64,000 nucleotides of DNA, taken from the NCBI RefSeq assembly GCF_024223415.1, contig NZ_CP100500.1. The stretch is one strand, 5' to 3'. Both the position numbers and the translations under genes were made by a program. Shown here piece after piece: positions 29,339-61,987 of this stretch. Under the pieces are notes generated by a model, which made no database searches, had not been told where the DNA came from, and saw only the letters and a list, made by a program, of their open reading frames with translations. Each line of letters opens with the position of its first letter. Positions within the stretch are counted from its first letter, which is position 1. Source of the stretch: Escherichia coli. Lineage in GTDB: Bacteria; Pseudomonadota; Gammaproteobacteria; Enterobacterales; Enterobacteriaceae.

Positions 29339-29414
29339 TGGTGCCGATAATAGGAGTCGAACCTACGACCTTCGCATTACGAATGCGCTGCTCTACCAAC
29401 TGAGCTATATCGGC
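29339..29414 (-). tRNA. thrW: tRNA-Thr (anticodon CGU)
   Basis: Reverse complement reads GCCGATATAGCTCAGTTGGTAGAGCAGCGCATTCGTAATGCGAAGGTCGTAGGTTCGACTCCTATTATCGGCACCA, a 76-nt cloverleaf with CGT anticodon and encoded CCA. Confidence 0.95.
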
Positions 29415-53147: not shown

Positions 53148-56100
53148 TTATTTTTTATCGGCATCTTTTTTATCATCACCTTTAAATTTATCTACCGCTT
53201 CACTAGAAGTCATGTCAGTAATATAATCTCCAAATGCATTTTCAGGCACAAAGGGCAATTTACCCAAAGTTGCACCTAATAATTCCTCCGCTCCTGTATC
53301 AGCAGCAGCATAAACACCAGATTTAAAATCCCCTCCCTTACTTAAAAATGACAATCCCATTTTCAAAGCTATTTTCTCAACAAACGTTTTTCCCGCTCCC
53401 CAAGAACCACCTAAAGCACATAGCGCCAACTCGGATTTATCCGGCATCTTATGATCAGACATATAGTCAGTCGTAGCAACCGCACCACATGAACTAAGAC
53501 TTCCAATTGCTATCTCCCCCCATGTAAGAGTCCCCCCTTCTAATGCAGCCGCACTTGCTACTGGCTCGGTAAATACTACTCCGGCAATAACAGGAGGCAG
53601 TAAAGCCCATCCTTTTACATAATCGTCTAATGGATTATACACTCCACGCATACTTGAAAAATCATCCAACGCTTTAAATTTTTCTTCATCTGACAGGTTC
53701 GGGGCGAATCCAACATTAGCCCCCTGCATAGTGTTATAATAATTAGTTCCAAATATCATTTGCGGCGTTACATTAGCTAACCCCAACGGATCTATATGTT
53801 CAATAGGATTGAGTGGGTACTGGTAAGGATTTAATCCTCCTTCCAGCCCAATCGGGTCCTGGGTGATATACCGTCCCTGCAACGGGTCATAGTACCGGTG
53901 ACGGTTGTAATACAGCCCCGACTCCTCATCATACTGCTGTCCCGGCAGACGGTACGGCTGTTGCAGGTGCTGCGCGCTGGTTTCGCCCAGCAGGTTTCCC
54001 CACTCGTCATACTCCCCCTGCCACGCCGTTTCCCCTTCCGGGCTGATGAGCGCCTGCGGCAGTCCCCGGTGGTCGCAGTGGTAAAGATGAAGTTTCCGCT
54101 CCGGGATGTATTCCGCCTCCAGCTGCGCGGCCATCTGCTCCGCCGTCAGCCCGCACTGCGCAAGCCATGCCTCACTCTCCGCACTCACCGCTCCCGCGCG
54201 CAGTTCCCGCTCCAGCCTCCCCAGCATCACCGACAGCTCCGCCGGTAGCGTCACACCCGTGTCCTCTTGCAACACCTCCGCCAGGCTCCGGTGCCGCGCC
54301 TTCGCCTGTTCGCCATTCTCTGTTTCGATTCTCAGGAGCGGCGTGAAGCTCCCCGGCTGGTATACCGTCTGGATACGCGTGGTGCCGGTCTGTATCGTCG
54401 TCAGCCTGTCGCCGTCCCACCCGTACCATGTCACCTCCGGTTTACGCGACAACGACATCCACCCCGTCAGGTCACGCTCCCGCCGCCATACCCGTTTTCC
54501 CGTCCGGCGGCCCAGCGGGTCATAGAGGTAACGGCTCTCCACCTGTGGTTCGCCGTGCTGTATCCGCGTGTAGAACACCAGGCGGTGCTGGCTGTCGTAG
54601 TGGTAGTGGTGGGTCCGCTCGTCGTGCATCCGGATAACCCCTTCCGGGATGCGGTCCGTCTTCTCCGCCAGCCTGCCGTATTCATCGTGGCGGTAGACAT
54701 AGTGCGCATCTTCCGCGATGCGGTTATCCGGCCACGCCGTGAGCGTGCTGTCCGGGTGCAGTTCCGGGTCCGGCAGCCGGTTTCCCGCCGGGTCTGTTGC
54801 ATACGGGATATCGATATCCAGGTTCGCCGCCGTGGTGTGGACGCCCGTCAGCCTTCCCGTGTCACTGTAACGGTACTCCCGGCTCTCCTGCGGGCCGCTG
54901 ATGCGGATTAGCTGTCCGTTGTCGTTCCAGTCGTAGTCACGGTCAAGCTGCGGGAGGTTCAGGTGCCTGCTCCGGAGCTGGCCGCTGGTATTCCAGGCGG
55001 TGGCAAGTTCATATGCCTCCCCGCCGAAGCTGCGGGCCGTCTCACGGTGCAGCCGGTCCCGCGTGTACTCGACCAGTGGCGTTCCGCCCAGCTTCATCCC
55101 CGCAAGATAACCGCTGCCATACGTCAGCCACTCTACCGGCGGCAGACCGTCCGGCTCCTGACGGGTCGCCAGTCCCTGTTCGCTGTACGCGTGCCCCGTC
55201 TCATGCTCCCACAGCATCTCCCCCGTCTCCGGGTTCTCCACCGTCTGCCGTTCGCCCGTCAGGCGGCCTTTATCGTCATAGCCGTAGTGGACCGCCACAC
55301 GGTGGCCTTCACTGGTATGGCTGATGGTGGTTAACCACCCGTGCTCATCATACTGCCACTGCTCCGCCGGGTCGCCGTTCACCGTCCGGTGCGTGATGCG
55401 GTCCGACGCATCGTAATGCCAGAGGGTGATAAGTCCCTCATCTTCACTCTGCGTGAGTTTTCCGGTCAGGTCATAGTGGTAACGTTGCGTCCGCCCGTCA
55501 AAACCGCGCTGTTCAGTCAGCCTGTCCACCGGGTCATACCGGAACGTGGACTGGCTGCCGTTCTCGTTGGTCAGCACGGTGATGCGCCCGGCAGCGTCAT
55601 ACCCCATGCTGCGCGTAAGACCGCCTTCCGTCACACTCACCGGACGCCCGCGTTTATCATATTCGATGGTGCTGCATTTACCGTCCGGTGATATCGTTGC
55701 TGTCAGGTCGCCTGCGGCGCTGTACTCATAACGGATTTCACGCCCCTGCGCATCCTTCTGACTGACCAGTTGCCCACGCGGGTTATAACTGCTGTAAGTG
55801 CTGATGCCTTCTTCCCGGTGAACGGCGATTTGTTGACCGTACCGGTCGTACTCATACCGCGTCGTGTACCCCGAGCAGTCCGTAAAGGCCAGCAGTTGAC
55901 CGTAACGGCTCCATGCCATCTGTTTTGTACTGCCCGTCGCATCCTCTATCCCTGTCGGCAGCTCACTCGCCGGGTCATCATAGCTGTAACTCGTCGTCTC
56001 ACCGCTGCGTGAGGTCTCCGCCGCCAGCCTTCCCTTCTCATCATACTCCCGGCTGCTGCGAAGCCCGTCCGGGTACGTCACCGACGTCACCTGCCGCTGG

Positions 56101-57536
56101 CTGTTATAGCCATACCGTACCGTCCTGCCGTCCGGCCCCGTCACCGCCGTCACCGCACCCGACGCCATATGCAGGCTGTACTCCGTCCGCTGCCCCGCCG
56201 CATCCGTCTGTGCCTTCAGCCTCCCCGCCTCATCATACTCGCTGCGGGTGATGCTCCCGTCCGCATGCTCCTTCTTCACCACCCGCTTCAGGCCGCCTTC
56301 GCCCTCCGTGTACAGCACCTCCCGCCGGTTCAGGCTGTCCGTGATGGTCACACGGTCCTGCCCGTACTCAAAGCGGTAGTCCAGCCCCTCCGGGTTGACC
56401 TGCTCCGTCACCCGACCGGTATCATCATACCGGTAGCGGCTCTCCGGCCTCCCTGCATAATGGTGCGCCACCATCCGCCCCGCGTGCTCCGCATCATAAG
56501 TAAACCCGCGCACCTGCGTCCCGCTGCGGTCATACACCGCCCGCAGTTCTCCGCTGGCCGTGTACGTGTAGCGCGCCAGCGGCGCAGTCGGCTGTTCATC
56601 CGGGTATGCCGGGTCGTGTGTCAGCCACACCGCCTCCAGCCGGATACCGTTATCGGCACCGTACTCTGTACCGGTGGGCAGCGTGTCGGGGAAAACCTGA
56701 GAAGAGGAAACAGAACGGGGACTGGCCGGGGAAGATAAGGAAGACTCGCGCTGTTTACGGAAGGCTTCCGCCCGCTGCGCCTGTGTGGTCAGCGCCAGGT
56801 GAAAACGGCGGCCCGCGCCGTCCGTCACCCCCGTCACCGCGCCCGCCACGTCACCCTCCGCCGCCCTGTGAAAGGCCAGCGTCCGACCAAAGCCATCCAC
56901 CACGCCCGTCAGCACCCGGTATGCGGGCGGCTCCGGCGGCAGCACCTCGTCCGCCTCCGGCACCCGCTCCGGCCAGCTGAGCACCAGCCACTGCCCGGTT
57001 GTGCTGACAGCCATCATATAGGTGTGTGGACTCAGACGGACCGCTTCCGGCAGCGCCCGCCAGAGCCGGGCCAGCGGGTGGTCTTTGTGTTGTTTCAGCA
57101 CCCCACCCCTTGCCAGCCAGAGTGACTCGCTGCGGCTGTAGCTTATCTCGCCGGGAAACAGCGGCTCAAAGTGAATGCTCCTGCCGCCGTTGTCGTTGAG
57201 TATCAGTTCCCGCTCATGAATCTGTAAGCGGATATCAAAGGGGGCTTTCCAGCCGGGGCCAAACACCCCCACCGGCGCGGGCGTCCTGGTCCGGTAACTG
57301 CTGTAGGCACGGGAAAGAATGAACGGCAGCGGGCCGGGCAGCGCAAGGTCCGTCTCGCCCGGCAGCACCTTCGCACCCAGTAGCGGGTTCACCGGGTTAG
57401 CATAGGTAATCCCTCCCGGACACACCGAGCAGGCCACTCCCGTCGGCGCACCTATCAGCACCCCCGCTGAACCCTGCACAATATCCAGTCCCTTGCGGGT
57501 CATATCACCCTGCCGCGCCGCCGGTTTTCCGCCCAT
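53148..57536 (-). CDS. rhs: Rhs-family polymorphic toxin with N-terminal PAAR-like motif and variable C-terminal domain
   Basis: 1462-aa ORF: N-terminus [12 protein letters not shown], long YD-repeat core, core-terminal PxxxxDPxGL motif (DPIGLEGG...IDPLGL), then a 209-aa low-GC extension. AAGGA ribosome-binding site. Confidence 0.9.
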
Positions 57537-57611: not shown

Positions 57612-59753
57612 TCAAAATTGCCGCATATCCGGCATTCCGGGGGGTAAATCTTTCGGCACAGGCGCATCCGGTACAGGTTGTGTGGCACCACAGTTCCAGT
57701 TAATCACCGGCGCATCACCGTTCACATCCGACTCCCCTTCCAGATGAATGTGCGTACCATTAAGAAATATGCTTCCGTCCTTCGTCAGCACCAGCCTTGC
57801 CTTACCACAGCAGAGTTCAAGATGCTCACCGGCAGAATAAACTGCTGTTTGTCCGGTGTTTTCCTTCATCGTCTTGCCCACCGAGAAGGTGACGTTATTC
57901 CCTACATTGACGCTGTAGCCCATTCCCACCATCAGTGATTTATGCAGCCCTACCTGTGAGGACTGCAACAACGCCACCGAGGTATTCATAATGCCGCCTA
58001 CCGTCGTCTGATACGCCACACCCACCGTCAGCGCACGAATGATCCCCACCTTTTCAACCTGGTTTGATCCCACTTTGATAATCTGGTTACTGCCTACCGT
58101 TTCCACCTGGTTGACACCAACCGTCTGTATCTGATTAACGCCAATGTTCTGGATCTGGTTATTGGTAACGGTGATCGCCTGGTTGTTACCTATTTTTTCG
58201 GCATGGTTGTTTATCACATCCGTGGTGCGGTTATTCAGCACCTCGGTGTTCATGTTCTTCTGCGCGTGGATGTAGACCTGTTCTTTCCCTGTCGCATCGT
58301 CAAACTTCAGTTCATTAAACCCGCTGCCCTTATAGGTTTTCGAACGAATGGTCATCTGCGTCTTTGTTCCCGGCAGGCTGCCGGGTGTGCGGTTTTCCTG
58401 GTGGTAGGTGCGCCCCATAATGATCGGCTGGTCCGGATCGCCGTTGAGGAAGTCCACAATCACCTCCTGACCCACGCGCGGTATCGCAAGGTTACCGAAT
58501 CCGGTGCCTGCCCACGCCTGTGCCACACGGATCCAGCATGAACTGTCCTGGTTTGACGGGTTATAACGGTCCCAGTTAAATTTCACCCGCACGCGGCCAT
58601 GTTCATCACAGAAGATTTCCTCGCCTGCCGGTCCCGTCACGACGGCGCTCTGCGGGCCGTCCACCAGCGGTTTCAGCAACGGCTGTGGTCGCCATGTTCT
58701 GTCTGCCGGTATTACCGCAAAATGGTTATCCAGCGTGGTGCCTGAACCCCTGCGTCCCGGTACCGCCTGCGGCTGTTCGCCGTGAAGATCGCTCGCCACC
58801 ACCTGCCATTCCCGGTTCAGGTTCGCCTGCGGATGCCCCGTCAGCACAATTTGCCGTCCCGGCCATATCTCCGGCGAACGGCTTGTTCCGCGCGCCACTT
58901 CTGCGTTGTTGCGCCAGCCATCCATCTGCCAGCGGGCAAAGTTCTGCCCGTGGGCGCCCTTGAAACGTCCGGGGTAGTCATACACTTCATACTGTGTGCG
59001 CTGGTAATCCTGGTACTGGCCTTCCTGATCAAAACGCCCTGCCCAGCCGGGTCGTTTAAAGGTGTAGTCTTTGGTCACCACGGAAGAAGGGCGGATTTGT
59101 GCGCTGTAGCGAAACTGGCTGATGCAGAGGGTGCTTACCTCGGTACGGGTGTTCGGATTCCAGGGGATCTCAAAGGACTCCGGCAGATAACGCACGGTAT
59201 CGCACAGGACCAGGCTTTGGTCGGTACTTTTTTGCGCGTGCTCCTCATAAAAGAAGATGCCTTCCTCCGCCGCCATCCGGCACAGGAAATCGTAATCAGT
59301 CTCACCGTACTGGACACAAAACTCACGGGAAGGATGTGGCTCGCTGAACAGCGGGCTCCACTCGGTCACCCCGTTTTCCTGCAATATCGTGCCGAGGATG
59401 CTTTCGATGTCCTCATTCTGGAAGATACGGAAGTTCTGGCGCAGCCCTGTGCGCCACAGCGGCGGGCATACCTTCATGCTGTACAGCTTCTGGTTTTTGT
59501 CGTTCTCCCCCAGTTCAAACCAGGTCACCACACCTTTCACCCGGCGCTGTACGTCATCGCCCTGCCATATCGTCAGGTAGGCCATTTTGTCGAGGATCTG
59601 CTGGAATTCAAGGGAGAGAAACTGCTGGCTGACCAGAGAGAGATCGAGGGAAAAAAGCGAAGAGAGTGACTGGTTCAGATGAAAGGAGACCACCGCAAAA
59701 GCATCCGGTGGCAGGCCGTCCACTTCCAGCGTGAAACGTAATCCGGTTGACAT
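57612..59753 (-). CDS. vgrG: type VI secretion spike protein VgrG
   Basis: 713-aa ORF recognised as VgrG from the N-terminal sequence and size; C-terminal repetitive (beta-helix-like) region. Confidence 0.9.
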   Translation of the reverse strand: MSTGLRFTLEVDGLPPDAFAVVSFHLNQSLSSLFSLDLSLVSQQFLSLEFQQILDKMAYLTIWQGDDVQRRVKGVVTWFELGENDKNQKLYSMKVCPPLWRTGLRQNFRIFQNEDIESILGTILQENGVTEWSPLFSEPHPSREFCVQYGETDYDFLCRMAAEEGIFFYEEHAQKSTDQSLVLCDTVRYLPESFEIPWNPNTRTEVSTLCISQFRYSAQIRPSSVVTKDYTFKRPGWAGRFDQEGQYQDYQRTQYEVYDYPGRFKGAHGQNFARWQMDGWRNNAEVARGTSRSPEIWPGRQIVLTGHPQANLNREWQVVASDLHGEQPQAVPGRRGSGTTLDNHFAVIPADRTWRPQPLLKPLVDGPQSAVVTGPAGEEIFCDEHGRVRVKFNWDRYNPSNQDSSCWIRVAQAWAGTGFGNLAIPRVGQEVIVDFLNGDPDQPIIMGRTYHQENRTPGSLPGTKTQMTIRSKTYKGSGFNELKFDDATGKEQVYIHAQKNMNTEVLNNRTTDVINNHAEKIGNNQAITVTNNQIQNIGVNQIQTVGVNQVETVGSNQIIKVGSNQVEKVGIIRALTVGVAYQTTVGGIMNTSVALLQSSQVGLHKSLMVGMGYSVNVGNNVTFSVGKTMKENTGQTAVYSAGEHLELCCGKARLVLTKDGSIFLNGTHIHLEGESDVNGDAPVINWNCGATQPVPDAPVPKDLPPGMPDMRQF

Positions 59754-59962: not shown

Positions 59963-60481
59963 TTATGCTTCCAGCGGTGCGCGCCAGTCGTCGGCACCGG
60001 AGGTGCCAGATTTGACGTGTTCCCATTCAATTTTGCGGTAGGCCAGTGAAACTTCGAGCAACTGGGTGAACTCGCGTTTCGCCGGGTCCTGGCAATGCGG
60101 CATATGCAGTTTCATATCGACAATCGTCGAATCAGTCAGGCGGGTAGTGAAATAATGCTCCTGTTTGCCTTCCACAGAGGTACGCCACCAGTGAAGTTCA
60201 GTGGTTGGCAGCATTTCGCCGGAGGCCAGTGCGTTGTACATCAGCGGAACCGCTTTGTTCAGCGCCACGGTAAAAATGAAAGGCTTGTGAGCACGCTGAC
60301 CCGCAGGCTGACCGGACTGAGGATCGGTCGGGACAGTAACGTTATGCAGGAATTCCTGCACCAGCATCTCGTCTTCGTGCCCCTGCACATAGATGTTGCC
60401 GACAGAATCAGCGGTAAATGCACCTGCAGTAATATTTCCCTGGGTCTGACCAGTGATGGAGATATAACACGGTGTTGGCAT
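59963..60481 (-). CDS. hcp: type VI secretion tube protein Hcp
   Basis: 172-aa ORF recognised as Hcp from the translation; directly upstream of vgrG. Confidence 0.9.
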   Translation of the reverse strand: MPTPCYISITGQTQGNITAGAFTADSVGNIYVQGHEDEMLVQEFLHNVTVPTDPQSGQPAGQRAHKPFIFTVALNKAVPLMYNALASGEMLPTTELHWWRTSVEGKQEHYFTTRLTDSTIVDMKLHMPHCQDPAKREFTQLLEVSLAYRKIEWEHVKSGTSGADDWRAPLEA

Positions 60482-61177
60482 TTGTAAACTCCTTGTTAAC
60501 GTGGTTAATTACTACTTACAATGACCTGCCGTTAATCCCAGACAGGCAGATGCAGCTCACTTCACGGAACCGCATCATTTTTCAGTATTTTTTACATACA
60601 AACCGAGCTAGAATTTACGGTTGTCGTAAAAACTATTTTTAAAATCATTAAATCTCTTATTCAGCAATAACTTAATAATATATATCTGGATAACCATACC
60701 CAACTGTTCAAAGTCCGTATTGCCTCCATAAAATGGCCAAAGCTGAATCATGAATAAATATTGTATTTATCCTTTCTGAATTATCATTTTGATAATTTTT
60801 GAGATATTCCTTAAAAATACCCACTTAATCAATCACAAAACAAACATATAAACAAGCAATCATTAGATTAGCTTATGTTTAATAAAATTATTATATAATT
60901 CAATAAGATGCATAAAAAACTCTATATTTAAATTATTGCCATAATACACCTGACGCGAATTGCACAGGTTCATACAATCTATTTAACGCTTGCAGAATAC
61001 CCCTCTTTACGATCGATAAAAAGTCCTTTTATTATTTATTTTGAAGCGTAAAATGCGGGGTGATGAAGGAGTGGTGATTTTATTTTCACCGCCATCAAGG
61101 CGGCATTTCCGATATTTTTTGCGGTACGAATATGCCGTGTTCATGGCCTGTACGAGATAACATGACGGATCACTTTT

Positions 61178-61678
61178 ATGAGCAAAAAATTTGAAGGCAG
61201 CGTCGCGCCTCGCGAGCGTATTAATATATCGTATGTCCCAAAAACAGATGGCCAGACGGCTGAAGTGGAACTTCCGCTTAACATGCTCGTTGTCGGCGAT
61301 ACCGGAAATACGCAGGAAACATCCTCACTGGATGAACGTCAGGCAGTTTCCGTTAACAAGCACAATTTCGGTGCAGTGATGGCTGAAGCAGCCATTGGCC
61401 TCAATTTTACCGTCCCCGCCACGCTGAAGGGAAGCACAACGGACGATGAGCTGAATGTGGCGCTGAATATCAAGTCACTGGATGATTTTTCACCAGATAG
61501 CGTGGCCCGGCAGGTTCCGGAAGTGAATAAATTGCTGGAACTGCGTGAAGCACTGACTGCACTGAAGGGGCCGATGGGTAACCTTCCGGCATTCCGTACC
61601 CAGCTCCAGGCATTGCTGGAAAATGAAGAGTCCCGCGAGCAGTTGCTCAAAGAAATCGGCCAGGTGAGCAATAAATAA
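61178..61678 (+). CDS. tssB: type VI secretion sheath small subunit TssB
   Basis: 166-aa ORF recognised as TssB (VipA family) from the translation. Confidence 0.9.
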   Translation: MSKKFEGSVAPRERINISYVPKTDGQTAEVELPLNMLVVGDTGNTQETSSLDERQAVSVNKHNFGAVMAEAAIGLNFTVPATLKGSTTDDELNVALNIKSLDDFSPDSVARQVPEVNKLLELREALTALKGPMGNLPAFRTQLQALLENEESREQLLKEIGQVSNK

Positions 61679-61712
61679 CCACCACTATTTCATTAAACAG
61701 GGTTATCCAGGC

Positions 61713-61937
61713 ATGACGGCACACAAAAATATCTCCGGGACATACCACCTCTCTGTTGCAGACATTCTGCAGGTGGTTTACCAGGTATGTTTCAGCCCGT
61801 CCGTTGAAATCAACCAGGATGGTGTGGCTGCGCTGATTACAACACTGGATCGCCGTATCAGTGATCTATTGGATGAGATTATCCATTTTTGTGAGTTTCA
61901 GCAGAGCGCGTCGCACTGGCAGCGCGTACTTCACTGA
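61713..61937 (+). pseudogene. diverged TssC-like internal fragment (74 codons)
   Basis: VAALITTLDRRISDLLDEIIHFCEFQQSASHWQRVL aligns with residues ~65-100 of the downstream TssC (VDSMIADIDERISRQMDVIIHAPAFQQVESFWRSL); different frame, diverged at DNA level. Confidence 0.45.
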
Positions 61938-61987
61938 CGGCGAAAAGCCGGTTTCAGAAACACAGCTAAAACAGAAGGATTTTCAGT

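Follow-up and report, generated by a model that had tools for sequence, protein, structure and literature searches.

The 309-nucleotide (nt) gap between the sheath genes tssB and tssC in a type VI secretion system (T6SS) cluster of Escherichia coli holds a 74-codon open reading frame (ORF), here called ORF74 or tssC'. It is probably an ancient, lineage-defining truncated paralogue of tssC that was once under selection, is now drifting in E. coli, and persists mainly as a long tssB-tssC spacer. The window, as the term is used here, is the whole 64,000-nt stretch of contig NZ_CP100500.1 (assembly GCF_024223415.1) that was analyzed. ORF74 lies at positions 61713 to 61937 on the plus strand and runs from ATG to TGA in a frame that differs from that of tssC (offset, 275 nt), which confirms the initial annotation of a 74-codon ORF between tssB and tssC and out of the tssC frame. 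Literature on enterohemorrhagic E. coli (EHEC) places the cluster in T6SS-2 (PMC7216683). The ORF sits in the core T6SS-2 operon of about 41% of complete E. coli genomes, yet it carries the Prokaryotic Genome Annotation Pipeline (PGAP) label "hypothetical protein" (WP_000123970.1), also in E. coli O157:H7, in which the same DNA was found. A literature search returned no paper mentioning WP_000123970 or a truncated tssC between tssB and tssC. A truncated tssC paralogue explains why the gap between these two genes, normally of about 20 nt, measures 309 nt here. Gene remnants are an ordinary class, but this one stands out for its unusual age, its wide distribution, the clear trace that past selection has left in it, and its place in a medically relevant secretion system.

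The relationship of ORF74 to TssC was evident at several levels. BLASTP aligned ORF residues 15 to 72 with residues 50 to 102 of the adjacent TssC at 20/58 identities (34%) and an E value of 2e-8. Over TssC residues ~65 to 100 alone, identity counted by eye was 15/34 (44%), so the 45 to 50% identity given in the initial annotation was close for that segment and too high for the full BLASTP alignment. Smith-Waterman scores compared with residue shuffles gave a z score of 10.6 for the window ORF and of up to 22 for its relatives. A profile of the fragment family matched a profile of TssC N-termini in hhalign with a probability of 97.4% and an E value of 1.3e-11 (fragment positions 29 to 87, TssC 57 to 115), and the fragment profile also matched solved TssC and VipB chains in the PDB with E values of 2e-8 to 1e-6, among them TssC 5urw (2.4e-8) and VipB 5mxn (7e-8). 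The DNA of the fragment and of the tssC 5' region was 56% identical in an ungapped 105-nt core, and local DNA alignments reached 63 to 65% identity, above every shuffle. DNA identity therefore exceeds protein identity, as expected when one copy changes at all three codon positions, and the earlier description of the DNA as much more diverged than the protein has to be reversed. The alternative that a chance ORF happens to resemble TssC has the short length of the match in its favor and nothing else. As the alignment lies far above chance at the protein, profile, and DNA levels and extends to solved structures, the probability of that alternative is practically nil, and the statistical test on which the initial annotation had staked its reading came out in favor of homology.

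The fragment has a conserved core, codons 38 to 72 (VAALITTLDRRISDLLDEIIHFCEFQQSASHWQRV; 61824 to 61928, plus strand), which corresponds to TssC residues 68 to 102, that is, the domain-3 helix and the helix that follows it. The assignment draws on BLASTP, the shuffles, hhalign, DNA identity, and the PDB matches. Codons 13 to 26 (LSVADILQVVYQVC; 61749 to 61790) are the decayed equivalent of the N-terminal helix of TssC (LLDQIMAQTRIQ), a correspondence that is transitive, through the fragment family alignment and the fragments of clade 3 (three of the loci outside E. coli described below). For the window ORF alone, the match to this helix was not significant (P = 0.18). The N-termini of the clade-3 fragments match TssC residues 9 to 35, including the LLDEIMAQT helix, with a score of 48 against a null of 18 ± 3.7 (0/2000 shuffles). 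Relatives of the ORF thus retain a recognizable copy of TssC ~9 to 35, at odds with the earlier statement that the fragment lacks the TssC N-terminus. The missing parts are roughly residues 36 to 56 and everything beyond ~115. Past the ORF74 stop, the tail at 61938 to 61963 resembles TssC ~106 to 115 in the ORF frame (GFRN versus DFRENI), a likeness that is weak alone and is joined by the extension of the hhalign match to TssC 115.

Domain models placed these segments in the same family and also set a limit on the assignment. The top Pfam match, VipB, was sub-threshold (i-E value, 0.003) and covered only model positions 2 to 33 of 301, with no VipB_2 match, and TIGR03355 was the top NCBIfam match (E value, 5e-4) at 19 to 23 bits versus a curated cutoff of 271.5. 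ORF74 accordingly shows N-terminal homology to the TssC family and neither reaches the whole-protein threshold nor contains both the VipB and VipB_2 domains. Like TssC/VipB (PF05943 plus PF18945; TIGR03355; PDB entries 5MXN, 3J9G, and 5URW), to whose N-terminal ~115 residues it is homologous, it retains the domain-3 helices. Unlike them, it has 74 rather than ~490 amino acids (aa), and both the handshake strands and domains 1 and 2 are missing. ORF74 cannot be a sheath subunit.

The fragment is widespread in E. coli and is shared with other genera. A 501-nt query spanning the spacer matched 2,268 of 5,426 complete E. coli genomes, 2,225 of them (about 41%) over at least 80% of the query length, O157:H7 included. 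A coding sequence (CDS) was annotated between tssB and tssC in all 29 of the full-coverage E. coli records that were sampled, and two main E. coli alleles were distinguished, one ≥99% and the other about 94% identical. Outside E. coli, this arrangement was also found in Escherichia albertii, Yokenella regensburgei, Citrobacter youngae, a Citrobacter-like assembly, Salmonella enterica, and three further enterobacterial assemblies (L009 to L011, which form clade 3). In all loci the spacer measures 286 to 316 nt and the fragment ATG stands 29 to 34 nt past the tssB stop. The spacers can be aligned among nine loci of three clades and share the same internal gap, and the ORF has 66 to 105 codons in the Escherichia, Salmonella, Citrobacter-like, and clade-3 loci. 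Conserved position and an open frame across genera, as looked for in a genuine small gene, are therefore present, and the comparison with related strains that the initial annotation proposed found the fragment fixed and syntenic across at least four genera.

The presence of the fragment follows the cluster lineage. The window tssB shares 74 to 77% aa identity with the fragment-carrying Salmonella, Citrobacter, and Yokenella alleles and 54% with the E. coli allele termed variant B. The nearest fragment-less clusters, of Superficieibacter, Citrobacter farmeri type, and Enterobacter, encode TssB proteins that are 68 to 72% identical, with the same gene order and a tssB-tssC gap of 17 to 23 nt. 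All 11 of the lineage-A loci examined carry the spacer, and absence tracks a different tssB allele. This uniform presence in lineage A, together with the short gap in the nearest outside clusters, points to a single old insertion that defines one sub-lineage, here called A. As the T6SS core genes are annotated by PGAP as intact in the closest sister clusters and in variant B, which are without the fragment, it is not required for this machine type. It is a simple marker that separates two E. coli tssB-tssC cassette types.

The two E. coli cassettes, each consisting of tssB and the tssC 5' end, occupy the same position in the cluster. Cassette A was found in 2,225 genomes and cassette B in 553, including the type strain, with the fragment absent from B, a gap of 22 nt, 54% aa identity in TssB, and 77% in TssC. 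A hybrid of the two was observed in HH97 (L003, 2418 to 3000) upon comparison with window positions 61178 to 62048 and the type strain (L008, 4001 to 4590): its tssB and about the first 20 codons of its tssC are of type B, and the tssC to which they are joined is of type A. The HH97 sequence is 98% identical to the window from 61971 onward, with a breakpoint near tssC codon 20, which indicates that recombination occurs inside the tssC 5' end. Recombination at this junction did not create the fragment. Further locus variants were seen in public assemblies, namely, P0033 (100 aa, seven contigs), P0045 (99 aa), and P0001/P0014 (107 aa). They include ORF74 codons 1 to 26 fused to the last ~74 TssC residues, an internal TssB part fused to the fragment, and stop-loss read-through forms. 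Unless they are assembly errors, these deletion and fusion variants suggest that some clusters are degenerating around the spacer.

The simplest account of the origin of the fragment, inferred from these alignments, is one partial tandem duplication of the tssC leader plus about 115 codons, followed by internal deletions. In the ancestor of one enterobacterial T6SS sub-lineage, the tssB-tssC leader and about the first 115 tssC codons would have been duplicated in tandem, and the upstream copy would then have lost roughly codons 36 to 56 and a few N-terminal codons. The whole spacer (61679 to 61987, plus strand) would be the remnant of this event and consist of a leader copy, truncated tssC', the tail, and the true tssC leader. 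The homology runs to about TssC residue 115 and ends where the true tssC leader starts. The arithmetic of lengths also agrees: 23 + 345 + 23 nt, minus ~63 nt for residues ~36 to 56 and ~24 nt close to the N-terminus, gives an expected length of about 304 nt, and 309 to 316 nt are observed. The ORF74 leader (61679 to 61712) is probably a decayed copy of the tssC Shine-Dalgarno (SD) region (AAACAGGGTTATCCAGGC-ATG versus AAACAGAAGGATTTTCAGT-ATG). When the stretches of 25 nt that precede each ATG were aligned with one another, the score exceeded that of shuffles with a P value of 0.026 in the window; in other loci P was 0.04 to 0.28, and a leader copy upstream of the ORF74 ATG is suggestive only. 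A truncated copy next to its parent and with an upstream leader, as expected of a partial tandem duplication, is thus found, the leader likeness being the suggestive element.

The source of the duplicated segment appears to be close to the lineage itself. An ancestral core, obtained as a majority reconstruction from the three clades, was 61 to 65% identical in DNA to the lineage-A and Superficieibacter-type (L015) tssC genes, 59% identical to variant B, and 52 to 54% identical to the Enterobacter and C. farmeri types. Likewise, the fragment proteins scored higher against lineage-A TssC than against variant B. These lower values for variant B, in protein score and in DNA identity, led us to reject it as the origin. 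When 1.84 billion representative proteins were searched with the fragment profile, only the fragment family and, at 35 to 40 bits, TssC N-termini were returned, with E. coli lineage-A TssC variants among the best matches, and no TssC lineage was found clearly above lineage A in that search. The description of the fragment as old, derived from tssC, and not the product of a recent tandem duplication is borne out. Its supposed descent from a different T6SS lineage fared worse, as the fragment is closest to its own lineage and the nearest sister, L015. The proposal that recombination had left it behind is likewise disfavored, since the fragment is a fixed syntenic feature of the whole sub-lineage, is absent from the closest sister clusters, and fits a tandem duplication in leader likeness and lengths.

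Substitutions between clades indicate that ORF74 once encoded a protein under constraint. The ratio of nonsynonymous to synonymous substitution rates (omega), estimated by pairwise maximum likelihood (ML), was 0.13 to 0.34 in the ORF frame in all nine of the between-clade pairs, with likelihood ratio test (LRT) statistics of 5.6 to 19.7 against an omega of 1. In the other two frames it was about 1 or more (0.96 to 4.6). In the core it was 0.05 to 0.15 between clades, versus about 0.8 within them. When a coding-like ancestor was evolved neutrally to the observed divergence in 120 simulations, the median omega was 0.97, and 0/120 fell at or below 0.34. Under neutrality at this divergence, the probability of retaining the ATG with no stop over 74 codons is about 0.07 per lineage. 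By our own count from the alignments, 5/6 of the indels inside the ORF were multiples of 3, compared with about 1/7 outside it.

Three other sources of this signal were considered and rejected. Gene conversion from the adjacent tssC does not account for the low deep omega, as fragments, at the positions that distinguish tssC of one clade from that of another, matched the tssC genes of their own clade and of other clades equally (35 versus 35). A method artefact is not supported by the frame-shift controls or by the neutral simulations. Differences in mutability with GC content by codon position do not account for the excess at position 3, as positions 1 and 3 have GC contents of 58% and 57%.

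Within clades, the pattern is different. Pairwise ML omega was 0.46 to 2.35, and joint omega was 0.8 to 1.0, with support over roughly 0.5 to 1.5, and a within-clade omega of 0.25 was rejected by 10 to 11 log-likelihood units, conserved core included. The window allele and the 94% allele differ at 18 sites, distributed over codon positions as 6/10/2, with 15 nonsynonymous and 3 synonymous differences. For tssB in the same allele pair, omega by the NG86 method was 0.05. Between E. coli and E. albertii, the core contains no synonymous and eight nonsynonymous differences, and four residues conserved in the other clades have changed in the window lineage (D39A, A43T, M53L, and R70Q). The ORF is open in 8 of 11 loci. 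The other three are disrupted: Yokenella has a 1-nt insertion and a stop, C. youngae has a stop at codon 21, and the E. albertii type strain has lost the ATG and carries several indels. The window ORF itself has no frame-breaking lesion, and stop positions vary in clade 3.

On our reading of these data, purifying selection maintained the ORF during the divergence of the clades, and the constraint has since been relaxed, certainly in Escherichia. A constant, strongly site-heterogeneous constraint fits less well than early selection followed by relaxation but, given the small within-clade samples, may still hold. According to the initial annotation, its reading would be overturned if the fragment proved to be a genuine small gene that is conserved in T6SSs of this type. 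In this respect the evidence is divided: synteny is conserved, the frame is mostly intact, and deep-branch omega is well below 1, but the ongoing purifying selection on the protein that is expected of such a gene was not found within clades. ORF74 resembles ordinary pseudogene fragments of partial tandem duplications in lying beside its parent, in its truncation and internal deletions, in a recent omega of about 1, and, in some lineages, in its independent disruptions. It differs from them in its age and stability (at least four genera), in the mostly retained ATG and frame, and in the deep omega values. For some time in its past, ORF74 appears to have behaved like a gene. The fragment would also be a partial fossil of the ancestral TssC N-terminus.

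The expression context of the spacer was also considered. The tssB operon has been described as a single polycistron in EHEC (PMC13141884). CsrA was reported to control tssC but not tssB, and a possible CsrA site, an AGGA/ANGGA motif, lies 8 nt upstream of tssC (PMC13141884). The true tssC leader (61964 to 61987, plus strand) carries the SD sequence AAGGA at 61975 to 61979, 8 nt from the ATG; it is nearly invariant in 9/9 loci and is similar to the entire 17- to 23-nt intergenic region of the fragment-less clusters. The SD sequence of ORF74 as read from the sequence, AGGG about 10 to 11 nt before the ATG, is weak and unfavorably spaced. The spacer would be transcribed filler within the tssB operon, the tssB-tssC gap having widened from about 20 nt to 309 nt, and any peptide from the weak ORF74 start would probably be dispensable. 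The widened gap implies that tssC would be translated from its own SD sequence and not by coupling to tssB. No sigma-70-like promoter or intrinsic terminator was found in the spacer, and no Rfam family matched it at an E value of ≤1. The RNAalifold consensus over the spacer was weak (-12.7 kcal/mol over 335 columns). An 11-bp helix between window positions 61825 to 61838 and 61872 to 61885, which joins the two most conserved blocks (TGGATG..CTGATT and GATGAG..ATCCA), was 94% paired in nine loci. Its covariation was not above shuffles (73 to 116 of 500 reach it), and the window D39A change (GAT to GCT) breaks one pair. A conserved RNA structure was therefore rejected, the consensus being weak and the covariation within the shuffle range.

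Several observations weigh against a once-selected tandem duplicate that is now drifting. The omega values come from our own pairwise GY94-type ML implementation, checked only by the frame-shift controls and the neutral simulation. Within-clade samples are small (three sequences per clade and 28 substitutions in Escherichia), and omega values down to about 0.5 retain support. In the core, Citrobacter and Salmonella differ at four synonymous versus three nonsynonymous codons, and relaxation may not hold for every clade. To assume that relaxation happened three times independently is also less parsimonious than a constant, site-heterogeneous constraint. The spacer diverges more slowly than flanking four-fold sites, at 0.4 to 0.8 times their rate, and does so within clades as well, and some nucleotide-level or weak protein-level constraint may persist. 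With respect to origin, the left duplication junction is weakly supported, and local rescoring of the fragment profile gave 54.8 bits for Superficieibacter-type TssC, 49.6 for an unrelated distant TssC, and 41 to 44 for lineage A. This spread indicates a resolution of about ±10 bits and gives no pointer to a distant T6SS type; a donor from the very close Superficieibacter-type sister cluster may nevertheless be considered. As Superficieibacter-type TssC is 85 to 90% identical to lineage A, near the 88 to 92% range within lineage A, we did not count it as a different lineage. Finally, tssB and tssC reportedly form separate operons in EHEC according to Kim et al. (2022), as cited in PMC13141884.

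Other explanations of the spacer were weighed against the same evidence. That the fragment is a recombination scar, carrying a 5' segment of tssC brought in from another T6SS lineage, could draw on the HH97 hybrid, which shows breakpoints at this very junction in E. coli, and on the 11 bits by which the fragment profile favors Superficieibacter-type over lineage-A TssC. However, the fragment is fixed over a multi-genus lineage, with no presence/absence polymorphism within the cluster type, and variant B and the Enterobacter and C. farmeri types are less similar to it than its own lineage. In addition, the Superficieibacter-type protein falls inside the lineage-A identity range, the global profile search returned no clearly higher distant TssC, and the leader likeness fits a local tandem duplication; taken together, these results make an import very improbable. 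Retention of the spacer as a cis-acting RNA or DNA element, such as a long tssC 5' leader for CsrA or small RNA control, an internal promoter, or a hairpin, with the ORF incidental, would account for the spacer rate below that of four-fold sites with no codon-position pattern within clades. It would also agree with the 11-bp helix paired in nine sequences, with the published CsrA control of tssC and not tssB, and with the single account of tssB and tssC being transcribed separately in EHEC. Such an element is still rather improbable, because the consensus fold is weak, helix covariation lies within shuffles, the window allele breaks a helix pair, and promoter, terminator, and Rfam family were all not found in the spacer. 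Moreover, nucleotide-level constraint alone does not explain a frame-specific deep omega below 1 or in-frame indels.

It is also conceivable, although we consider it unlikely, that tssC' is still a working small gene whose two-helix peptide would mimic TssC domain 3, bind TssB and/or ClpV, and could tune sheath assembly, recycling, or the TssB:TssC balance, its fast recent evolution reflecting weak or shifting selection. Consistent with such a gene are the low deep omega, which is specific to the ORF frame and absent from the neutral simulations; the retention of ORF and ATG in all three clades, with a CDS in 29/29 sampled E. coli records; the in-frame indels; a spacer divergence under that of flanking four-fold sites; a predicted structure that is confidently helical; and the identity of the kept segments, namely, the domain-3 helices, through which TssC contacts TssB and ClpV in solved sheath structures. 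It is opposed by the within-clade omega near 1, with 0.25 rejected; by the Escherichia core, in which every difference is nonsynonymous and deeply conserved residues have changed in the window allele; by disruptions that arose independently in three lineages and by stop positions that vary; by the poor SD sequence and its unfavorable spacing; and by its absence from the sister clusters and variant B, in which it is evidently not required. The same evidence bears on a further form of this proposal, namely, that tssC' is a functional, lineage-specific T6SS accessory peptide of 70 to 74 aa, a two-helix mimic of TssC domain 3 that would bind to the C-terminal helix of TssB, to the N-domain of ClpV, or to both, which we regard as doubtful. 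If true, functional tssC' would modulate sheath assembly, premature polymerization, or recycling in T6SS-2 of Escherichia, Salmonella, and Citrobacter.

An AlphaFold2 model of ORF74, built from a five-sequence alignment, had a mean pLDDT (predicted local distance difference test score) of 80, with helices at residues 15 to 26 and 35 to 73. A fold search of this model against the PDB returned nothing informative, as expected for a helical hairpin. TagJ/HsiE1 of the Pseudomonas aeruginosa H1-T6SS is a small accessory protein that binds sheath components; it is not known to derive from a sheath subunit. A functional tssC' would be like TagJ/HsiE1 in being small, lineage restricted, cluster encoded, and active on TssB or ClpV, but the two have no sequence relationship. 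In solved sheaths, the VipB N-terminal helix is bound by ClpV and the domain-3 helix bundles with the TssB C-terminal helix (PMC5807055). By homology, the first ORF74 helix would correspond to the ClpV-targeted TssC N-terminal helix and the long helix to the TssB-bundling domain-3 helix, and we hypothesize that the peptide could act as a TssB- or ClpV-binding decoy. If active, the peptide would illustrate the derivation of a regulator from one of the structural subunits that make up a contractile machine. The EHEC T6SS is silent when studied in vitro (PMC13141884), and either a candidate peptide or the long leader might bear on the difficulty of activating it.

The remaining genes of the cluster lie at the end of the window. 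The plus strand encodes tssB (61178 to 61678; sheath small subunit, 166 aa, lineage-A allele), an ORF annotated as tssB in identical E. coli records; tssC (61988 to 63463; sheath large subunit, 491 aa), the parent gene of the fragment, of which residues 21 to 168 match VipB 5mxn with an E value of 3e-60; and tssE (63470 to 63883). On the minus strand are hcp (59963 to 60481) and vgrG (57612 to 59753). In the divergent hcp-tssB promoter region (60900 to 61115), an indel-shifted stretch was observed relative to the 94% allele (L002), with nearly identical flanks. The hcp-tssB region is bound by H-NS and has several start sites (PMC13141884). Downstream of vgrG, a 1,462-aa ORF (53148 to 57536, minus strand) corresponds to the gene annotated as "RHS element core protein" in O157:H7 and is likely the effector module of the cluster. 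The only tRNA in the window, tRNA-Thr (CGT) at 29339 to 29414 on the minus strand, is about 24 kb from the T6SS-associated genes.

A separate difference was observed in tssC itself. In O157:H7 strains ATCC 35150 (L001, 7778 to 7780) and ERL03-1416, codon 464 is a nonsense codon (CAG to TAG), and the resulting TssC has 463 aa (WP_000056994.1), with the last 28 residues lost. We take these residues to hold the C-terminal strand used in sheath handshake contacts, and this nonsense codon might be relevant to reports that the EHEC T6SS is difficult to activate. The window equivalent (63377 to 63379) is an intact CAG, and both the window and the STEC-sized genome 2011C_4037 have the full 491-aa TssC.

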